Sequence record: OP172792
Source: Escherichia phage ECO340P2
DNA: 64,000 bases
Reading direction: 5' to 3' (one strand)
The translations under genes were made by a program, and so were the position numbers. Shown here in pieces: positions 9,792 to 48,017 of this stretch. The notes beneath the pieces are model-generated. The model was not told the DNA's origin. It did no database searches and saw only the letters and a list, made by a program, of their open reading frames with translations. The number at the start of each line of letters is the position of its first letter. Positions within the stretch are counted from its first letter, which is position 1.

Positions 9792-9828
9792 CTCCTCACT
9801 TCTAGTTTAGCACGAAGGATATCTTAAG

Positions 9829-10014
9829 TCAACTAGGAATAATTTTATCCTTTTTGGTTTCATAACCAGTCCAATCTAAATCCTCCCAGCCTTCATCATC
9901 GTCTAACACATTGTCATCATCATAAGATGCAATGTTATAAATAGAACGTGGATTACAAGACATACAATCTTTAATAGGCACATGATGCCATTTGCACGGA
10001 TTCTCGCTAATCAT
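9829..10014 (-). CDS. hypothetical acidic small protein
   Basis: 61 aa ORF, last gene before the divergent AT-rich region. Confidence 0.45.
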   Translation of the reverse strand: MISENPCKWHHVPIKDCMSCNPRSIYNIASYDDDNVLDDDEGWEDLDWTGYETKKDKIIPS

Positions 10015-10495
10015 TACACACCTCCATTCTTGTTAAGATGTTCCGTACTGTACTTCATACTGATCTATAGATCAAGTATTATTTATAATAATTTATTATT
10101 TTATTTTTAATTGATAGAAGTTGATCTGTACGTACCAGTTCTGATACACTGTACCTGTTTGTTAGATCTAATAATTATTTATTATTAATATTTAATAATT
10201 ATTAATCTAGTACGGAGTACAGTACTTGAGTACAGAGTACTACATCAACAACCTAAAACCTTAACTCGCTGCGCTCGTTAATAGATTTCTAGGGTAGCAT
10301 ACTTCGAACACAAAAGTCAAGAGTTTTATTAAAAATTATTTTCTGTGTGCAAAAACCTTGCTTAAACAGGTAGCAATAGTATAGCCTATAACATAAGCTT
10401 CATAAGAGGCTCGTAGAGCAAGTTCACTTACTAGGTAAGGTGATTTATCATCTTATATATAAAAAGTGCGTCAGAGACGCGTTTAGGAGGTTAGA

Positions 10496-10819
10496 ATGAG
10501 ATTTACAAGACAAGAGGTAGTTGTGCTGGACGAAGCAATGACAATGATCGTCTTTTACTATGAGGATATCTTCTGTGCAGCATATCATTTAAATGACATT
10601 CAGATTGAATGGCAGCAGATAGCATTCCTGTTGGACAAGAGTAATCATTTGGATGGCTTTGAGTATTTGGAGTGGGATGGTGCAAAGGAAGTTAAAATTG
10701 TAGGGTTAAATCACGATCAGATTGTTGACATGCAATGTAAGTTGTGTCATTATCAGTTCTCAAACAAGGTCAAACTCGAAAGACAATTGGAGGTGGTTAA
10801 AGATGATAGCACTGATTAG
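10496..10819 (+). CDS. hypothetical protein
   Basis: first gene of plus-strand block; GGAGG 8 nt upstream of ATG. Confidence 0.55.
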   Translation: MRFTRQEVVVLDEAMTMIVFYYEDIFCAAYHLNDIQIEWQQIAFLLDKSNHLDGFEYLEWDGAKEVKIVGLNHDQIVDMQCKLCHYQFSNKVKLERQLEVVKDDSTD

Positions 10820-12790: not shown

Positions 12791-13135
12791 ATGAAAGTTT
12801 GGATAGATGATATGCGTAACCCAGCCGACTATGGACAGGAAGATGCAATTTGGTTTAAAACGTCACAAGAAGCTATGGCTTTTCTCAATGATCCTGCTAA
12901 ACTGTATCGAAGAGTAACCGAGTGGTCTTTTGACAATGATTTAGGTATGGAGTCAGACCAAGATGGGTATGATGTTTTCCTGTACCTGGAAGAACTTCTG
13001 GCGTTTGGTAAACCTTGCTTTGGTTCACCTACCATTTTCGTGCATACTTCTAATCCCGCCGCTGGGGATAAATTCATGCTTGCAAAAGAATCCATGCTGC
13101 GTTATGGTATTAAAATGATTCGTGTGCACTATTAA
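12791..13135 (+). CDS. hypothetical protein
   Basis: 114 aa ORF, RBS GAGGAGG. Confidence 0.55.
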   Translation: MKVWIDDMRNPADYGQEDAIWFKTSQEAMAFLNDPAKLYRRVTEWSFDNDLGMESDQDGYDVFLYLEELLAFGKPCFGSPTIFVHTSNPAAGDKFMLAKESMLRYGIKMIRVHY

Positions 13136-25566: not shown

Positions 25567-27807
25567 TTGATTCGTTTTGTAACTAAATCTAACGGTAAGA
25601 CAGAGGAGTTTAATCCAGAAAAACTTCGCAAGTGGTCTGAATTTGCAGCAGGTAAACTAAACTGGTCTGAAATTGAATTAGAAGCTGTGAAGCGGTGTTA
25701 TGACGGTGTGTCTACACGTGATCTGCATAAAGCAATGATTGCAGCGTGTATTGACAAGAAAACACAAGCTTACAGTGATATGGCAGGAAGACTTCTTCTG
25801 GGTATGATTTACAAACAGGCTCATGGGGGATACCACAGTATCCCTTCACTGAATACCTTTTATCATGATATGGTAGAACGTGGACATTGGGCTAAAATGG
25901 ATTATACTGATGAAGAGATCAAAGAAATCGGTAAGATTGTAAAGCATAATAAAAATCTAACTTATGGTTATTCTGTTTTACGTCAGATGGTAGATAAATA
26001 TCTTATTCGAGATGCAGTAAACGATGTTGTGCATGAGTCTCCACAGTTTCTTTTCATTGGTATCGCAATGAAGGTTATGGAGATCCAACCAAAAGAACGC
26101 CGTATAGAAGATATTAAAAAACTTTATACTTATGTTAGCGATCTTAAGATTAATCTGCCATCGCCGTATCTGACAACTCTACGAACTCCAATCAAAGGAA
26201 GTGCGTCTTGTTGTTTATTCCGTGCAGACGATACGGCAGAGTCTTTAGCCATTGCTAACTACTTAGCTCATGAGTATACGTTGAATAACGCAGGTATTGG
26301 TGTTAATCTTCAAACCCGTGCCACAGGTCAAGGTGTTAAGAATAATCGTATTATTCATGGTGGTCTTCTTCCGTATCTGAAATGGATGGAAGATAGTGTT
26401 GGAGCTTCGAAGCAAGCAAGCCGTGGAGGTAGTGCTACAGTTACCTTTACCATACTTGAACCAGATTTCGACGATCTGATTCGACTGAAGAATCCAACAA
26501 CACCTATAGATAAACGAGTAGACAAACTGGATTATTCTATTGTTGTTAACCGTTCATTCTTGCGTCGAGCAGCAAAAAACGAAGATTGGATGTTAGTTAG
26601 TTGTGATGATGCTCCTGAACTTTATGAAGCTTTGTATAAAAGTGAAGAAGAGTTTGATGCAGTTTATGACAAAGTAAGCCGTCGTCGCATTAAGAAAAAA
26701 TTTGTTAAGGCTCGTGATCTTCTGACAGAGATTATTGTTCAACGTGCAGAAACAGGACGTATTTACATGTTCTTTGCTGACAACGTTAACAACCATACAC
26801 CTTTCCTGGATACGGTGTATCAATCAAACCTGTGTCAAGAGATTTTCTTACCGACTAAAGCTTTCCACAATATGCCGGATCTCTTTACTGGTGAGAATAC
26901 TGAAGATCAAGAATTGGCTTTATGTTTCTTATCTTCTATTGTTGCTGGTCGTGTATTACCTGAAGAATATGAAGATGTTGCATACTACACTGTATTGACA
27001 ATTGACAACGTTATTGAAACAATGGATTATCCATTTAAACATAACGAAATAACTGCTAAAGCACGTAGATCTATTGGTGTAGGCATTACAAACTTAGCGC
27101 ATTACTTGGCAAGTAATTTTGTAAATTATTCAGATGCTTATGCTAAAAAATTAATGCATGAACTTGCAGAACGTCATTACTTTTGGTTGGCAAAAGCCTC
27201 TCTGCGTCTGGCTAAGGAAAAAGGTAATGCGGAGTGGATCGATAAGACCAAATGGCCTCAAGGTTGGCTACCAATTGACACTTATGTTAAAACAGTAGAT
27301 AGTATCGGTAATTTTGATCTTAAAATGGACTGGGAAGGCTTACGTGCTGAAATCATTGAACAAGGTGGTATCCGTAACAGTGTCTTGGCTGCTATTGCAC
27401 CTAATGAGTCCAGCAGTTTGGTAAGCAATACTACTAACTCTCTGTATCCTGTTCGTGATACCATTATGTATAAACAAAGTCAGAAAGGCAGTGTATTATT
27501 TATTGTTCCAGACTATGAAAAACTGAAAATGTTCTACCAATCTGCCTGGGATACTCCGGCTAAAGATCTTGCAGAAATGTATGGTATCTTTACCAAGTTT
27601 ACGGACCAAGGAATTTCTTGTGATTCTTGGTTAGATTATTCTAAATTGGTAGGGGGACGTTTATCAGTTAAAGAAGAGATGAAATTTATTTTGAACTTTG
27701 CTAGACTGGGTGGTAAGTCATTGTATTACCTTAATAGTAGAACAAAATCAGCAGATTCTTTAGCACAAGAAGATTCTGATGGTGGTTGTGAAGCTTGCAA
27801 GATGTGA
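25567..27807 (+). CDS. nrdA: ribonucleotide reductase large subunit (class Ia NrdA), TTG start
   Basis: 746 aa; N-terminal ATP-cone-like region, active-site NLCQEI, C-terminal tail ending CEACKM; RBS GGGAGGAG. Confidence 0.85.
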   Translation: MIRFVTKSNGKTEEFNPEKLRKWSEFAAGKLNWSEIELEAVKRCYDGVSTRDLHKAMIAACIDKKTQAYSDMAGRLLLGMIYKQAHGGYHSIPSLNTFYHDMVERGHWAKMDYTDEEIKEIGKIVKHNKNLTYGYSVLRQMVDKYLIRDAVNDVVHESPQFLFIGIAMKVMEIQPKERRIEDIKKLYTYVSDLKINLPSPYLTTLRTPIKGSASCCLFRADDTAESLAIANYLAHEYTLNNAGIGVNLQTRATGQGVKNNRIIHGGLLPYLKWMEDSVGASKQASRGGSATVTFTILEPDFDDLIRLKNPTTPIDKRVDKLDYSIVVNRSFLRRAAKNEDWMLVSCDDAPELYEALYKSEEEFDAVYDKVSRRRIKKKFVKARDLLTEIIVQRAETGRIYMFFADNVNNHTPFLDTVYQSNLCQEIFLPTKAFHNMPDLFTGENTEDQELALCFLSSIVAGRVLPEEYEDVAYYTVLTIDNVIETMDYPFKHNEITAKARRSIGVGITNLAHYLASNFVNYSDAYAKKLMHELAERHYFWLAKASLRLAKEKGNAEWIDKTKWPQGWLPIDTYVKTVDSIGNFDLKMDWEGLRAEIIEQGGIRNSVLAAIAPNESSSLVSNTTNSLYPVRDTIMYKQSQKGSVLFIVPDYEKLKMFYQSAWDTPAKDLAEMYGIFTKFTDQGISCDSWLDYSKLVGGRLSVKEEMKFILNFARLGGKSLYYLNSRTKSADSLAQEDSDGGCEACKM

Positions 27808-34172: not shown

Positions 34173-34607
34173 ATGTTACAAGTTCCTGCTAAGTTTGTTG
34201 AAGGCGCTATCCACTCTTACCGTCAAACATGTAAGAGGGCAAGAAACTGTTTAGATGGTCTGGTGGCAAAAACCTATACTGTTGAAAAGAAGAAACGTTG
34301 GTTTGGCAAAGATGTTTATGAAGTTAATATTTTTGGTGAACATAAACTAAACCATGACACTCCTGAAAACATGTTAGAAATATTTCTAAGAGATGACAAA
34401 ATATCTCCTATGGATTACCAACTTTTAAAATTTTATGATTCTTCTTTGGCTATTGATAAGTTTGTTGAAGATATTCTGTCTAGAAAAACAGATAAAAACA
34501 CTTATCCTCTAGAAGCTGATCAAATAGGATTATTAAACGAGATTTCATCCTTTAAAGAGTTGGATAATATTACAAAAGAGGAGATTTTAGATGGCATTAG
34601 ATTATGA
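34173..34607 (+). CDS. hypothetical protein
   Basis: 144 aa ORF. Confidence 0.5.
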   Translation: MLQVPAKFVEGAIHSYRQTCKRARNCLDGLVAKTYTVEKKKRWFGKDVYEVNIFGEHKLNHDTPENMLEIFLRDDKISPMDYQLLKFYDSSLAIDKFVEDILSRKTDKNTYPLEADQIGLLNEISSFKELDNITKEEILDGIRL

Positions 34608-35100
34608 TCGCCCAACGAGCGATTATTATCCGACACCGCAAAAAGCAATCAATAGTTTGTTTAGTGTTATAGATTTCAAAAATCTAAAGGAAGAAGGTTG
34701 GGTTTTTGCAGAACCTTGCAGAGGTGAAGCTGAAGCGATTTATCGCCATTTTCCTGAAGGTTCAGAATATTGCGAACTTGAAGAAGGCAAAGATTATTTT
34801 AGTCATGAATGGGAAAATCGTCCCGACATTATAATCACAAATCCTCCATTTAAGTTAGCAATGGAGTTCTTGGAAAAGAGCTTAAAAGAGGCGGATGTTT
34901 GTGTTTATCTTCTTCGGTTGGGCTTCTTGGAGTCAAAGAAACGACGAGAGTTCCATCAAAAGAATCCACCAACAAACCTTATAGTCCTTTCAGAACGGCC
35001 TTCGTTTGTTGCAGGTGGAACAGATAAGACAGCATACGCTTGGTATGTATACGACCCAAAGAATCGTTTGGGCCTCTCTCAACCATTTTATTTTGTTTAA
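34591..35100 (+). CDS. DNA N6-adenine methyltransferase (small phage Dam-like)
   Basis: 169 aa; YYPTPQ near N-terminus and catalytic NPPF motif. Confidence 0.65.
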   Translation: MALDYDRPTSDYYPTPQKAINSLFSVIDFKNLKEEGWVFAEPCRGEAEAIYRHFPEGSEYCELEEGKDYFSHEWENRPDIIITNPPFKLAMEFLEKSLKEADVCVYLLRLGFLESKKRREFHQKNPPTNLIVLSERPSFVAGGTDKTAYAWYVYDPKNRLGLSQPFYFV

Positions 35101-41128: not shown

Positions 41129-41524
41129 ATGTGTGGATATCTTTCAGAAAGTTATTTCAAAGTGACCCATGAGGATTTAGAAAAAGCACGATTGAAATTG
41201 ACAGCTATTATTGAATACTCTAATACTGTTGATCACAGATTAAAGACTACTAAAGTATCTGTTCCTTGTTGGTTAGGTTTACGGCATAAAACAATGTCTC
41301 AACATGATCATGTTGTTCGAGAGATGCATGGTTGGTGTTGGTTTCACGATGTGGCTCTGCATTTTGGTTATATTACAGAAGAAGAACATAGATTCTGTGA
41401 GCTAACATATCGTATTCCAACCCTTCACGATTTAGATTTGTGGAGGAAAGCAAGTGAGATCTTTCTGACAGAAAGTGATTGGCGTAAAGTTATGGCTTGT
41501 CTTGAATGGAGGGGCAATGAGTAA
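41129..41524 (+). CDS. hypothetical protein
   Basis: ATG after GGAGG; ORF-track start 41111 is inside previous gene. Confidence 0.5.
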   Translation: MCGYLSESYFKVTHEDLEKARLKLTAIIEYSNTVDHRLKTTKVSVPCWLGLRHKTMSQHDHVVREMHGWCWFHDVALHFGYITEEEHRFCELTYRIPTLHDLDLWRKASEIFLTESDWRKVMACLEWRGNE

Positions 41525-42200
41525 AACAGTTTTGTCTATGTTTGACGGATCTGGTATCATGGTGTTACGTTATGCCGAAGCAGGTCACAAGTGTTTTTGT
41601 GTAAACGCTGATGAAGGGGACCACGGTAAATACGAGGTCAGGATGGAGCACCCAAACATAACCTATGTGAATGCTTGGATAGATTCTACATTCAACCCTG
41701 AAGATCACGGAATACCTAAACCCGATATTATTTTTGGATTTCCACCTTGCACTATGTTAGCAGGTAGTGGTAGCAAACACGAACGTAGCACAGAGGAATT
41801 AGATGAAGCTTTAGCTAATATTCGTGTAGTGGAAGCTTTGGGTAACAAATACAATGTTCCTTGGATGATTGAGAACCCAGTAGGTAAACTTTCAACCTTA
41901 TGGCGTAAACCTGATTTTTACTTTGATCCTTATGAGTATGGTGGGTATTTGTTTGAAGAGGAAGGAAGCTTTCATCCTAAAATGCCTACCCGCGATGGAT
42001 ATACAAAGAAAACTTGTATCTGGTACGGAAATGGTTTTGTTCAACCAGTGAAGAAACCAGTAGATCATATAGGCTGTTTCTGGGGTTGGAAAAGCTTGGG
42101 TGGAGCTAGTGCAAAAACAAAACAACTTAGATCGCTAACAGCACGTGGTTTTGCTCGTGCAGTGTTTTTGTCTAACAATCTTCTAGATAAGGAGAAATGA
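41517..42200 (+). CDS. compact DNA (cytosine-5) methyltransferase-like protein
   Basis: motif I-like MFDGSG, motif IV-like FGFPPC, motif VI-like WMIENPVGKL; only ~227 aa, no obvious target-recognition domain. Confidence 0.45.
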   Translation: MSKTVLSMFDGSGIMVLRYAEAGHKCFCVNADEGDHGKYEVRMEHPNITYVNAWIDSTFNPEDHGIPKPDIIFGFPPCTMLAGSGSKHERSTEELDEALANIRVVEALGNKYNVPWMIENPVGKLSTLWRKPDFYFDPYEYGGYLFEEEGSFHPKMPTRDGYTKKTCIWYGNGFVQPVKKPVDHIGCFWGWKSLGGASAKTKQLRSLTARGFARAVFLSNNLLDKEK

Positions 42201-47657: not shown

Positions 47658-48017
47658 TTTTCCTCCTGTTCGGTATTATTCGCCTGTGAGACACAATGTA
47701 ACACAAGCCTTGTGAGTTTGTCAAGGATCTAATTACATTCTACAGAAGAAGGTGATTAATAACCATAGGAATAGTCTCACTATAGGTGTAAGATAAGGTA
47801 AGAGTTAGATTGATAGGTAAGACTTATCTTAAACAGATAATTGATAGGTAAACCAGCATTGACTTTTTCAAAAAAATATGGTACCCTAAACATATGTTTA
47901 CGAGCGATAGCGAGTAGTAGATTTCTATATAATAATGTTTCATGTTACTCACGATAGTGAGGTATGAAACGTAAGTGAAGGTAGATAAACTATGATCATC
48001 TATCTACCATCTATTAA

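Follow-up and report, generated by a model that had tools for sequence, protein, structure and literature searches.

In phage rV5, bidirectional promoters have been predicted at the switches in gene polarity (Kropinski et al. 2013, PMC3606486), and mini-hairpin DNA of the form GCGNAGC/GCGNNAGC is known from the primase origins of G4, St-1 and alpha3 and from the early promoters of N4, with a related CCGAAGG mini-hairpin in ssiA of RSF1010 (PMC13037366). The present study examined a 481-bp gap (positions 10015-10495) between a leftward 61-amino-acid (aa) and a rightward 107-aa open reading frame (ORF) in a 64,000-nucleotide stretch of Escherichia phage ECO340P2 (OP172792), referred to below as the window. 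An original prediction for this gap, with coordinates that proved exact (ORF starts at 10014 to the left and at 10496 to the right), had proposed an extremely A+T-rich control region with divergent early promoters, repeats that might form a regulator-binding array, and possibly a replication origin. A 3-kb query around the gap was 98.8-99.4% identical to the best-matching Escherichia phages, which belong to the genus Phapecoctavirus, and the window was assigned to a phAPEC8-like myophage of this genus (subfamily Stephanstirmvirinae, genome ~150 kb). The annotated Schickermooser genome comprises four transcription blocks with two divergent junctions, one of which is the gap; the second is just 118 bp long and has simple, predicted back-to-back promoters. 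We conclude that the gap is probably the principal divergent transcription-control region of this phage, read by the host sigma70 RNA polymerase and carrying GTAC sites with an operator-like role.

Predicted promoters at the divergent junction

Orthologous gaps were retrieved via the flanking 107-aa protein from phiWec179 and phiWec188 (a diverged lineage), phi92 and two phi92-like contigs, FKP3 and an FKP3-like contig, and Citrobacter phage Tr1. Six sequences from five lineages (the window, phiWec179, phi92, FKP3, L013 and Tr1) were scanned with a sigma70 position weight matrix (PWM). Three sites, P_L1, P_R1 and P_L2, ranked near the top by score in each of the six sequences and occupied orthologous positions, and a fourth, P_R2, was clear in the window, FKP3, L013 and Tr1. 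The four sites in the window score 9.0-11.2 bits, compared with 8.9-12.9 bits for the orthologues of P_L1, P_R1 and P_L2 and 11.6-13.8 bits for those of P_R2. The sites and the A+T-rich block between the first two are as follows.

10047-10075, minus strand: P_L1, predicted sigma70-like promoter; -35 TTGATC (10075->10070), 17-nt spacer, -10 TACAGT (10052->10047); PWM score 10.5
10076-10120, no strand: A+T block 1, 45 bp separating the back-to-back -35 hexamers, positions -36 to -80 relative to each of P_L1 and P_R1; ~11% GC
10121-10150, plus strand: P_R1, predicted sigma70-like promoter; -35 TTGATC, 18-nt spacer, extended -10 TGaTACACT; PWM score 11.0
10291-10320, minus strand: P_L2, predicted sigma70-like promoter; -35 TTGACT (10320->10315), 18-nt spacer, extended -10 TGcTACCCT (10296->10291); PWM score 11.2
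10423-10451, plus strand: P_R2, predicted promoter nearest the rightward gene; TTCACT-N17-TATCAT

All four have hexamers near TTGACA and TATAAT at a spacing of 16-18 bp, as is typical of sigma70-type promoters. Outside the genus, DNA similarity persists in the right half of the gap only, and in a cross-genus alignment that is mostly poorly alignable the promoter hexamers form conserved islands. The orthologues of P_L1 score 10.9-12.9 (phiWec179, phi92, FKP3, L013 and Tr1), with the TCAA of the -35 hexamer invariant in that alignment, and those of P_R1 score 8.9-11.3 in the same five sequences. P_L2 scores 11.2-12.9 in relatives, is nearly invariant in 11 close relatives and is kept across genera, while P_R2 corresponds to TTGACT-N17-TACCAT in Tr1, TTGACT-N17-TATCTT in L013 and TTGACA-N17-TATCAT in FKP3. 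We infer promoter activity at these sites from their positional conservation, because in a generic consensus scan of the region promoter-like sites were no commoner than in shuffled sequence.

Block 1 supplies both P_L1 and P_R1 with an A+T tract at about -40 to -60, the position of an UP element. A comparable A+T block separates the orthologous -35 hexamers of P_L1 and P_R1 in every lineage compared. Its length differs among close relatives through AATAATTTAT-type indels, so that a compositional role fits block 1 better than a sequence-specific one.

The leftward (minus-strand) unit consists of three small ORFs followed by a tRNA array (ten genes found by ARAGORN and one more by Rfam) and is closed by an intrinsic terminator (6998->6980), beyond which lie the terminase and structural genes. 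The rightward (plus-strand) unit holds small ORFs and then genes for an RNA ligase, a polynucleotide kinase, a DNA ligase, exonucleases, ThyX, ribonucleotide reductase, dTDP-rhamnose synthesis and a Sir2 protein. The prediction of divergent early promoters is thus supported as to divergence, by orthologous sigma70-like sites facing both ways in the six sequences, and is half right as to timing: the rightward arm leads into nucleotide-metabolism genes of early/middle type, whereas the leftward arm leads into a tRNA operon that precedes structural genes.

In the arrangement that we propose, back-to-back P_L1 and P_R1 would share block 1 as an UP element or curved-DNA activator. P_L1 and the upstream tandem promoter P_L2 would drive the three small ORFs and the 10-11-gene tRNA array up to the terminator, and P_R1 with the gene-proximal P_R2 would drive the rightward nucleotide-metabolism block. 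A tRNA operon downstream fits a strong, UP-element-assisted promoter. P_L2 would belong to a three-copy promoter class with a GCGNAGC/GCGNNAGC mini-hairpin in the initial transcribed region. The GTAC sites would most likely serve as operator-like binding sites of one sequence-specific factor controlling both back-to-back promoters, with a GTAC array further to the right as an auxiliary site; a protein of the phage might be this factor, or methylation of GTAC may play a part.

Clustering of GTAC sites and A+T-rich repeats

GTAC is strongly depleted in the window, with 51 sites observed against 177.9 expected under an order-2 Markov model (ratio 0.29, the lowest observed/expected value among the 16 palindromic 4-mers). 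Ten of the 51 sites fall within 196 nt of the gap (10045-10240). None of 20,000 simulations gave more than six sites per 250 nt, and the Poisson probability of the cluster at the background rate is ~3e-16; the clustering noted in the original prediction is therefore real, far beyond chance and stronger than first described. Outside this cluster just 2-3 non-coding GTAC sites occur in the 64 kb, and no other GTAC cluster in the 150 kb of the complete Schickermooser genome ranks as high as the gap. The same test found no clustering of CCGG, GGCC, CTAG or GATC. Strong GTAC depletion is specific to the genus, with a ratio of ~0.3 here and ~0.5-0.9 in sister-lineage loci.

The second-ranked GTAC cluster of Schickermooser (34,526-34,800, L016; 6 per 250 nt) lies in a dTDP-sugar gene region. 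The corresponding position of the window is without GTAC, and this difference could stem from a different, perhaps recently acquired allele of the region.

Within the gap, the GTAC sites are placed on the predicted promoters and in a tandem array next to a second A+T-rich block.

10160-10168, plus strand: short motif TGTTAGATC, which recurs downstream of P_R1 in phi92 and Tr1 and as a variant in phiWec
10165-10208, no strand: A+T block 2, a 7%-GC palindrome holding both copies of AATAATTATT; arms 10169-10186 and 10187-10204
10207-10241, plus strand: GTAC array, five AGTAC units at spacings of 7, 5, 8 and 7 nt; about five contiguous heptads, one readable as inverted

The AGTACAGTAC of the array recurs inverted at 10045-10054, over the P_L1 -10 hexamer, where the GTAC sites at 10045 and 10050 overlap that hexamer and the predicted start region. 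On the other side of block 1, GTACGTAC (10128-10135) places a pair of GTAC sites within the P_R1 spacer, and a further site at 10151 lies in the predicted P_R1 start region, after the -10 hexamer. In FKP3-like phages, too, GTAC occurs on the P_L1 -10 hexamer and directly after that of P_R1. An operator-like role for GTAC is suggested because the tetramer is purged elsewhere and the gap sites coincide with the P_L1 -10 hexamer and with the P_R1 spacer and start. The regulator-binding array of the original prediction is in this respect plausible; its protein partner is considered below. Readings of TACTGTAC, GAGTAC and GCTCGTTAATAG as LexA, SlmA or boxA-like sites were partial matches by eye and are not conserved in other genera. 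The array was also considered as an intrinsic terminator and rejected, as it has no G+C-rich stem or U-tract and a terminator scan found nothing there; leftward RNA over the array forms a long A-U/G-U-rich hairpin (z = -3.2 relative to shuffled sequence).

The GTAC string given as an example in the original prediction is the array at 10207-10241, and the other predicted repeats are likewise present. AATAATTATT occurs exactly twice in the window, both times in block 2 (10170 and 10194); block 2 is palindromic, with arms 89% complementary (DNA fold z = -3.6), and blocks 1 and 2 are direct repeats of each other (72% identity, 103 nt apart). The description of the gap as extremely A+T-rich suits two sub-blocks, 10061-10120 (13% GC) and 10165-10208 (7% GC), which yield the lowest-GC 150-nt windows in the 64 kb; it does not suit the gap as a whole, which is moderately A+T-rich (31.4% GC vs 38.4% for the window). 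Conservation of the AATAATTATT and GTAC repeats, on which the prediction was also staked, holds within the genus and fails beyond it: block 2 and the GTAC array are not present in phiWec, phi92 or Tr1. Between the convergent P_R1 and P_L2, block 2 and the AGTAC heptads form an insert specific to the genus.

These patterns also bear on whether the A+T blocks and GTAC repeats might be functionless, slippage-prone filler between promoters. The AATAATTTAT-type indels in block 1, a 15-nt deletion in the array of dw-ec, a point change in that of phAPEC8 and the absence of the elements from sister genera would all agree with this. Neutral expansion of the most avoided tetramer is improbable, however, block 2 is almost invariant in 11 genomes of the genus whereas the coding flanks vary, and an A+T block is kept between the -35 hexamers in every lineage; we regard filler as very improbable.

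Several observations weigh against the interpretation of the gap as a promoter and operator region. A literature search found no transcription-start mapping for this phage group, and the promoters are accordingly predictions. P_L2 is directed at P_R1, with its first gene 270 nt downstream, which is unusual for a simple promoter. The spacing of the heptads is irregular. The array and block 2, being absent from sister genera, are not needed for a core function. Finally, no candidate GTAC binder was found among the flanking small proteins, which have no recognisable domains: ten neighbouring small ORFs matched solely PHROGs of unknown function, and eight of these, compared with Pfam, showed no DNA-binding domain.

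Possible GTAC modification

When the BI-EHEC genome (OL505078, L024) was aligned to window positions 5505-53153, 20 of 34 GTAC sites read GTAT, ATAC or small indels, with the changes mostly to GTAT and a strand bias of 17:2. This genome was assembled from nanopore reads alone (PMC8686590), which together with the strand bias and the indels argues for systematic miscalling at a modified motif and not for evolution; the changes were accordingly rejected as real evolution of the array. The miscalling pattern hints that GTAC is methylated in virion DNA. A putative methyltransferase is encoded in the window.

41517-42200, plus strand: 227-aa Dcm-like protein in which motifs I, IV and VI of C5-cytosine methyltransferases occur (FDGSG, GFPPC, ENPVG)

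This protein had no Pfam or NCBIfam match, and its best similarity in the PDB was sub-threshold (M.HaeIII, E = 0.09). Its homologues occur in ~1,500 phage records, several of them annotated as Dcm-like, apparently including sister lineages in which GTAC is not depleted. A link between the methyltransferase and GTAC is therefore not established, and we rejected the attribution of GTAC depletion to this enzyme.

Three other palindromes are also strongly under-represented in the window (CCGG 0.33, GGCC 0.38, CTAG 0.56), GATC is not (0.95), and this depletion pattern suggests restriction avoidance. It is conceivable on these grounds that the GTAC island has no protein operator at all. Sites would have been lost genome-wide by restriction avoidance or deamination of methylated cytosine, and the cluster would be a methylation-sensing switch or simply bases constrained by promoters. 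Multiple depleted palindromes are typical of restriction avoidance, the BI-EHEC misreads and the methyltransferase motifs fit modification of the site, and of the ten GTAC sites in the gap, three coincide with the -10 or start positions of promoters. Deamination decay is poorly matched by GTAT and ATAC, which are barely over-represented (1.03 and 1.11), and five of the ten lie in tandem, away from any conserved promoter hexamer. The BI-EHEC evidence is indirect, and the distribution of the methyltransferase homologues is unfavourable. We judge this explanation to be quite unlikely compared with operator-like sites bound by a sequence-specific factor.

A predicted promoter and mini-hairpin module in three copies

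The most conserved non-coding sequence of the gap, on the minus strand, is TGcTACCCTA(A/G)-N11-CGAGCGCAGCGAG, which comprises the P_L2 -10 block and a hairpin box. Including the -35 hexamer TTGACT, this P_L2-type module is found in three copies per genome, and it is conserved in phi92, FKP3, Tr1 and phiWec-like genomes.

10261-10281, minus strand: mini-hairpin of the gap copy, TTAA-CGAGC-GCA-GCGAG-TTAA on the minus strand; core GCGCAGC = GCGNAGC
47861-47915, plus strand: second module copy in the window, TTGACT-N18-TGgTACCCTAA-N11-CGAGCGATAGCGAG; antisense to the surrounding early genes
Schickermooser ~128,594-128,650 (L018 ~27400-27456, minus strand in L018): module copy outside the window; co-directional with replication genes

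The two further copies share the consensus TTGACT-N17/18-TG(C/G)TACCCTAA-N11-CGAGCG(AT)AGCGAG. Relative to the predicted start of P_L2, the mini-hairpin spans about +8 to +28, and it is carried by the non-template (RNA-like) strand. Its box has a C-G pair, tandem G.A/A.G pairs, and then G-C and C-G pairs, and is invariant across the subfamily except for the loop letters (GCA, GAA, GATA, GGGA), while the outer stem covaries between copies (A-T, C-G, T-A; TTAA/TTAA in the gap copy). The sequence obeys the GCGNAGC/GCGNNAGC rule, as GCGCAGC here and as GCGATAGC, GCGAAGC and GCGGGAGC in other copies and genera, with invariant flanks. Nearest-neighbour folding energies miss the stability of such mini-hairpins (PMC13037366), and folding likewise failed to capture it here. 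Rfam covariance models run over 9800-10700 gave chance-level matches alone (E > 1), and hence no known RNA family.

A scan of IMG/VR for the module returned the subfamily copies and ~26 near-identical contigs of one unrelated lineage. Small viral contigs of that lineage (L025-L058) carry TACCCTATCCCCCCCAACGAGCGAAGCGAGTGGG, an arrangement of TACCCTA and CGAGCGAAGCGAG with an extended CCCA/TGGG stem. By our own rough estimate, tens of random matches are expected for an 18-base pattern in IMG/VR, and these matches may be chance amplified by redundancy, or a shared signal.

The module may work as RNA, its hairpin stabilising the 5' end of three transcripts or recruiting antitermination factors in the manner of nut or put sites. 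The hairpin follows a strong sigma70-like predicted promoter at ~+8 to +28 in all three copies, its outer stem covaries, the gap and ~128.6-kb copies are aimed into long operons with several predicted terminators, and the leftward RNA folds better than shuffled sequence, as noted above for the array. However, the copy at 47861-47915 is antisense to the local genes, a GAUA loop is not a GNRA tetraloop, the copies share no conserved sequence beyond the downstream edge of the box, no gene for an N-like, Q-like or other antiterminator could be recognised, and Rfam had no match. We consider an RNA-level role possible but rather unlikely.

The gap as a candidate replication origin

T4 oriF/oriG, the primary origin of T7 and ColE1 combine a promoter with A+T-rich DNA. 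By analogy, the gap or its right half might be a transcription-activated origin, in which P_L2 RNA would run leftward into the 44-bp, 7%-GC palindrome of block 2 as an unwinding element. On the displaced non-template strand, the mini-hairpin would either keep an R-loop stable or give the phage primase-helicase a single-strand initiation signal, and the AGTAC repeats would be iterons.

Part of this scheme has a counterpart in the gap. The elements occur in the order promoter, hairpin, repeats and extreme A+T palindrome; 10165-10208 is both palindromic and sufficiently A+T-rich for an unwinding element, and the minimum 40-nt GC content downstream of the gap module, 2.5%, is at the 0.14% quantile of the genome. 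Mini-hairpins of the GCGNAGC/GCGNNAGC type mark the complementary-strand origins of G4, St-1 and alpha3 (PMC13037366), and the loop set of the module fits the DNA rule, which allows any N, better than the RNA rule GNRA. The cumulative GC skew of the window also has a local minimum at ~10 kb.

The remaining evidence is unfavourable. In Schickermooser the skew turns at ~18, 55, 95 and 131 kb, exactly where the genes switch orientation, and it reaches its global minimum near 131 kb, at the second divergent junction; in rV5 the turns were likewise attributed to transcription direction (PMC3606486). Since skew turns coincide with changes in transcription direction, the ~10-kb minimum is not independent evidence for an origin. 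A promoter aimed into an unwinding element is a property of the gap copy of the module and not of the other two, which have no A+T-rich DNA downstream (quantile 0.33). The AGTAC units, 5-8 bp apart, do not have the ~11- or 22-bp spacing of iterons. The gap contains one DnaA box with a single mismatch, such boxes are no commoner across the window than chance predicts, and the four GATC sites of the gap form no significant cluster. The sister genera have the replication genes in common with this phage but have neither block 2 nor the array, and no initiator gene adjoins the region among the neighbouring small ORFs compared with PHROG and Pfam. The replication origin of the original prediction thus found no positive evidence beyond A+T-rich DNA. 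On the sequence evidence an origin is unsupported, and we consider it unlikely.

The kind of element represented by the gap is ordinary, while the GTAC island and the three-copy promoter and mini-hairpin module appear undescribed. A speculative extension of the promoter and operator interpretation, which we offer with low confidence, would make the locus a single-locus switch. A GTAC-specific factor (DNA-binding protein or methylation reader) would act only at this hub, its specificity driving or exploiting the GTAC purge. The three-copy TGnTACCCTAA plus GCGNAGC module would in addition define a novel type of phage initiation signal (an origin working through an R-loop or single-strand initiation, or a cis-acting antitermination element), with the gap copy aimed at a cruciform-prone unwinding element.

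Flanking genes and genome ends

Further features lie at or next to the two ends of the gap.

9829-10014, minus strand: first leftward gene, 61 aa; Cys/His-rich N-terminus and acidic middle; PHROG of unknown function, no Pfam match
10018-10026, minus strand: Shine-Dalgarno sequence GGAGGTGTG of the leftward 61-aa gene
10468-10495, plus strand: 5' leader of the rightward gene; hairpin GCGTCAGAGACGC at 10468-10480, Shine-Dalgarno AGGAGG at 10484-10489, ATG at 10496

In phiWec188 the stem of the leader hairpin GCGTCAGAGACGC changes from C-G to U-G, a pairing possible on the plus strand alone. The tRNA-like gene found by Rfam and missed by ARAGORN (8255-8339, minus strand, 39 bits) lies between tRNA-Asn and tRNA-Ser. 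In the rightward unit, a 114-aa protein (12791-13135, plus strand) has a Pfam cyclic-phosphate-processing receiver domain (cREC_REC, E = 4e-17), and its position ~1 kb ahead of the genes for RNA ligase and polynucleotide kinase suggests an RNA-repair module.

Phapecoctaviruses have short direct terminal repeats (PMC6563267, PMC12695924). The gap was considered as a terminal repeat or packaging site, as some records start nearby or annotate a 'repeat_region', and this was rejected: the terminal repeat of Schickermooser is an exact direct repeat of 329 bp, which corresponds to ~63643-63971 of the window, the physical genome end, and the 'repeat_region' near the gap is a 55-nt automatic feature. 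A 62-bp 'deletion' in phage nieznany falls at the record junction between the two A+T repeats and was set aside as a probable assembly artefact. The terminal-repeat stretch contains two Fur-box-like sequences (63700-63718 and 63882-63897; e.g. AATGATAATTATTCTC), and similar boxes occur in a 570-bp non-coding, A+T-rich repeat region of Schickermooser (~136.7-137.2 kb; L018 35480-36060).

Significance and comparison with known systems

Phapecoctaviruses, like the phi92-like phages related to them, are widely isolated coliphages that find use in therapy and biocontrol. Four conserved predicted promoters with exact coordinates, including the likely promoter of the tRNA operon, are useful for annotation, engineering and reporter insertion. 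A tetramer that is purged genome-wide and yet concentrated ~80-fold at one hub, and a promoter-hairpin module conserved across the subfamily in three copies, could expose new biology. Two cautions apply to existing data: the GC-skew minimum at the gap should not be taken as an origin, and the GTAC changes in BI-EHEC are a likely nanopore artefact, one that hints at modification of the site.

The locus can be compared with five groups of described systems. With rV5-like and related large coliphages it shares a large lytic myophage genome in four transcription blocks, sigma70-consensus promoters (some with an extended -10) predicted at divergent junctions, GC/AT skew turns at changes in transcription direction, and an undefined origin. 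The hub described here differs in spanning 481 bp and in having four conserved predicted promoters rather than two; it also contains two extreme A+T blocks, the GTAC array and the mini-hairpin module. In E. coli, UP-element-dependent stable-RNA promoters (rrn P1/P2 and tRNA operons) likewise have strong -35 and -10 hexamers, A+T-rich DNA at -40 to -60, a tandem arrangement and, downstream, a tRNA operon, whereas here one A+T block would serve two divergent predicted promoters.

Operator arrays bound by ribbon-helix-helix proteins include those of omega of pSM19035 (WATCACW heptads) and the metboxes of MetJ. The GTAC array is comparable to these in its ~7-bp repeats, readable as contiguous, direct and inverted, which adjoin or overlap predicted promoters; it differs in its irregular spacing and in that no ribbon-helix-helix gene was identified among the neighbouring small ORFs, and its operator role is putative. 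Like T4 oriF/oriG, the primary T7 origin and ColE1, the gap has a predicted promoter aimed at a possible A+T-rich unwinding element, with a possible structure on the displaced strand, although two of the three modules are without such an element, the A+T palindrome is genus-specific, and the arrangement is known from sequence alone. The mini-hairpins of G4, St-1, alpha3 and N4 are matched exactly in their sequence rule, in the loop N as the only variable letter and in their location at an initiation region. In contrast to these, the mini-hairpin described here is embedded in a longer conserved hairpin, with a C-G pair, tandem G.A pairs and a covarying outer stem, and follows a predicted sigma70-like promoter, in a phage whose DNA is double-stranded and that has no N4-type virion RNA polymerase.

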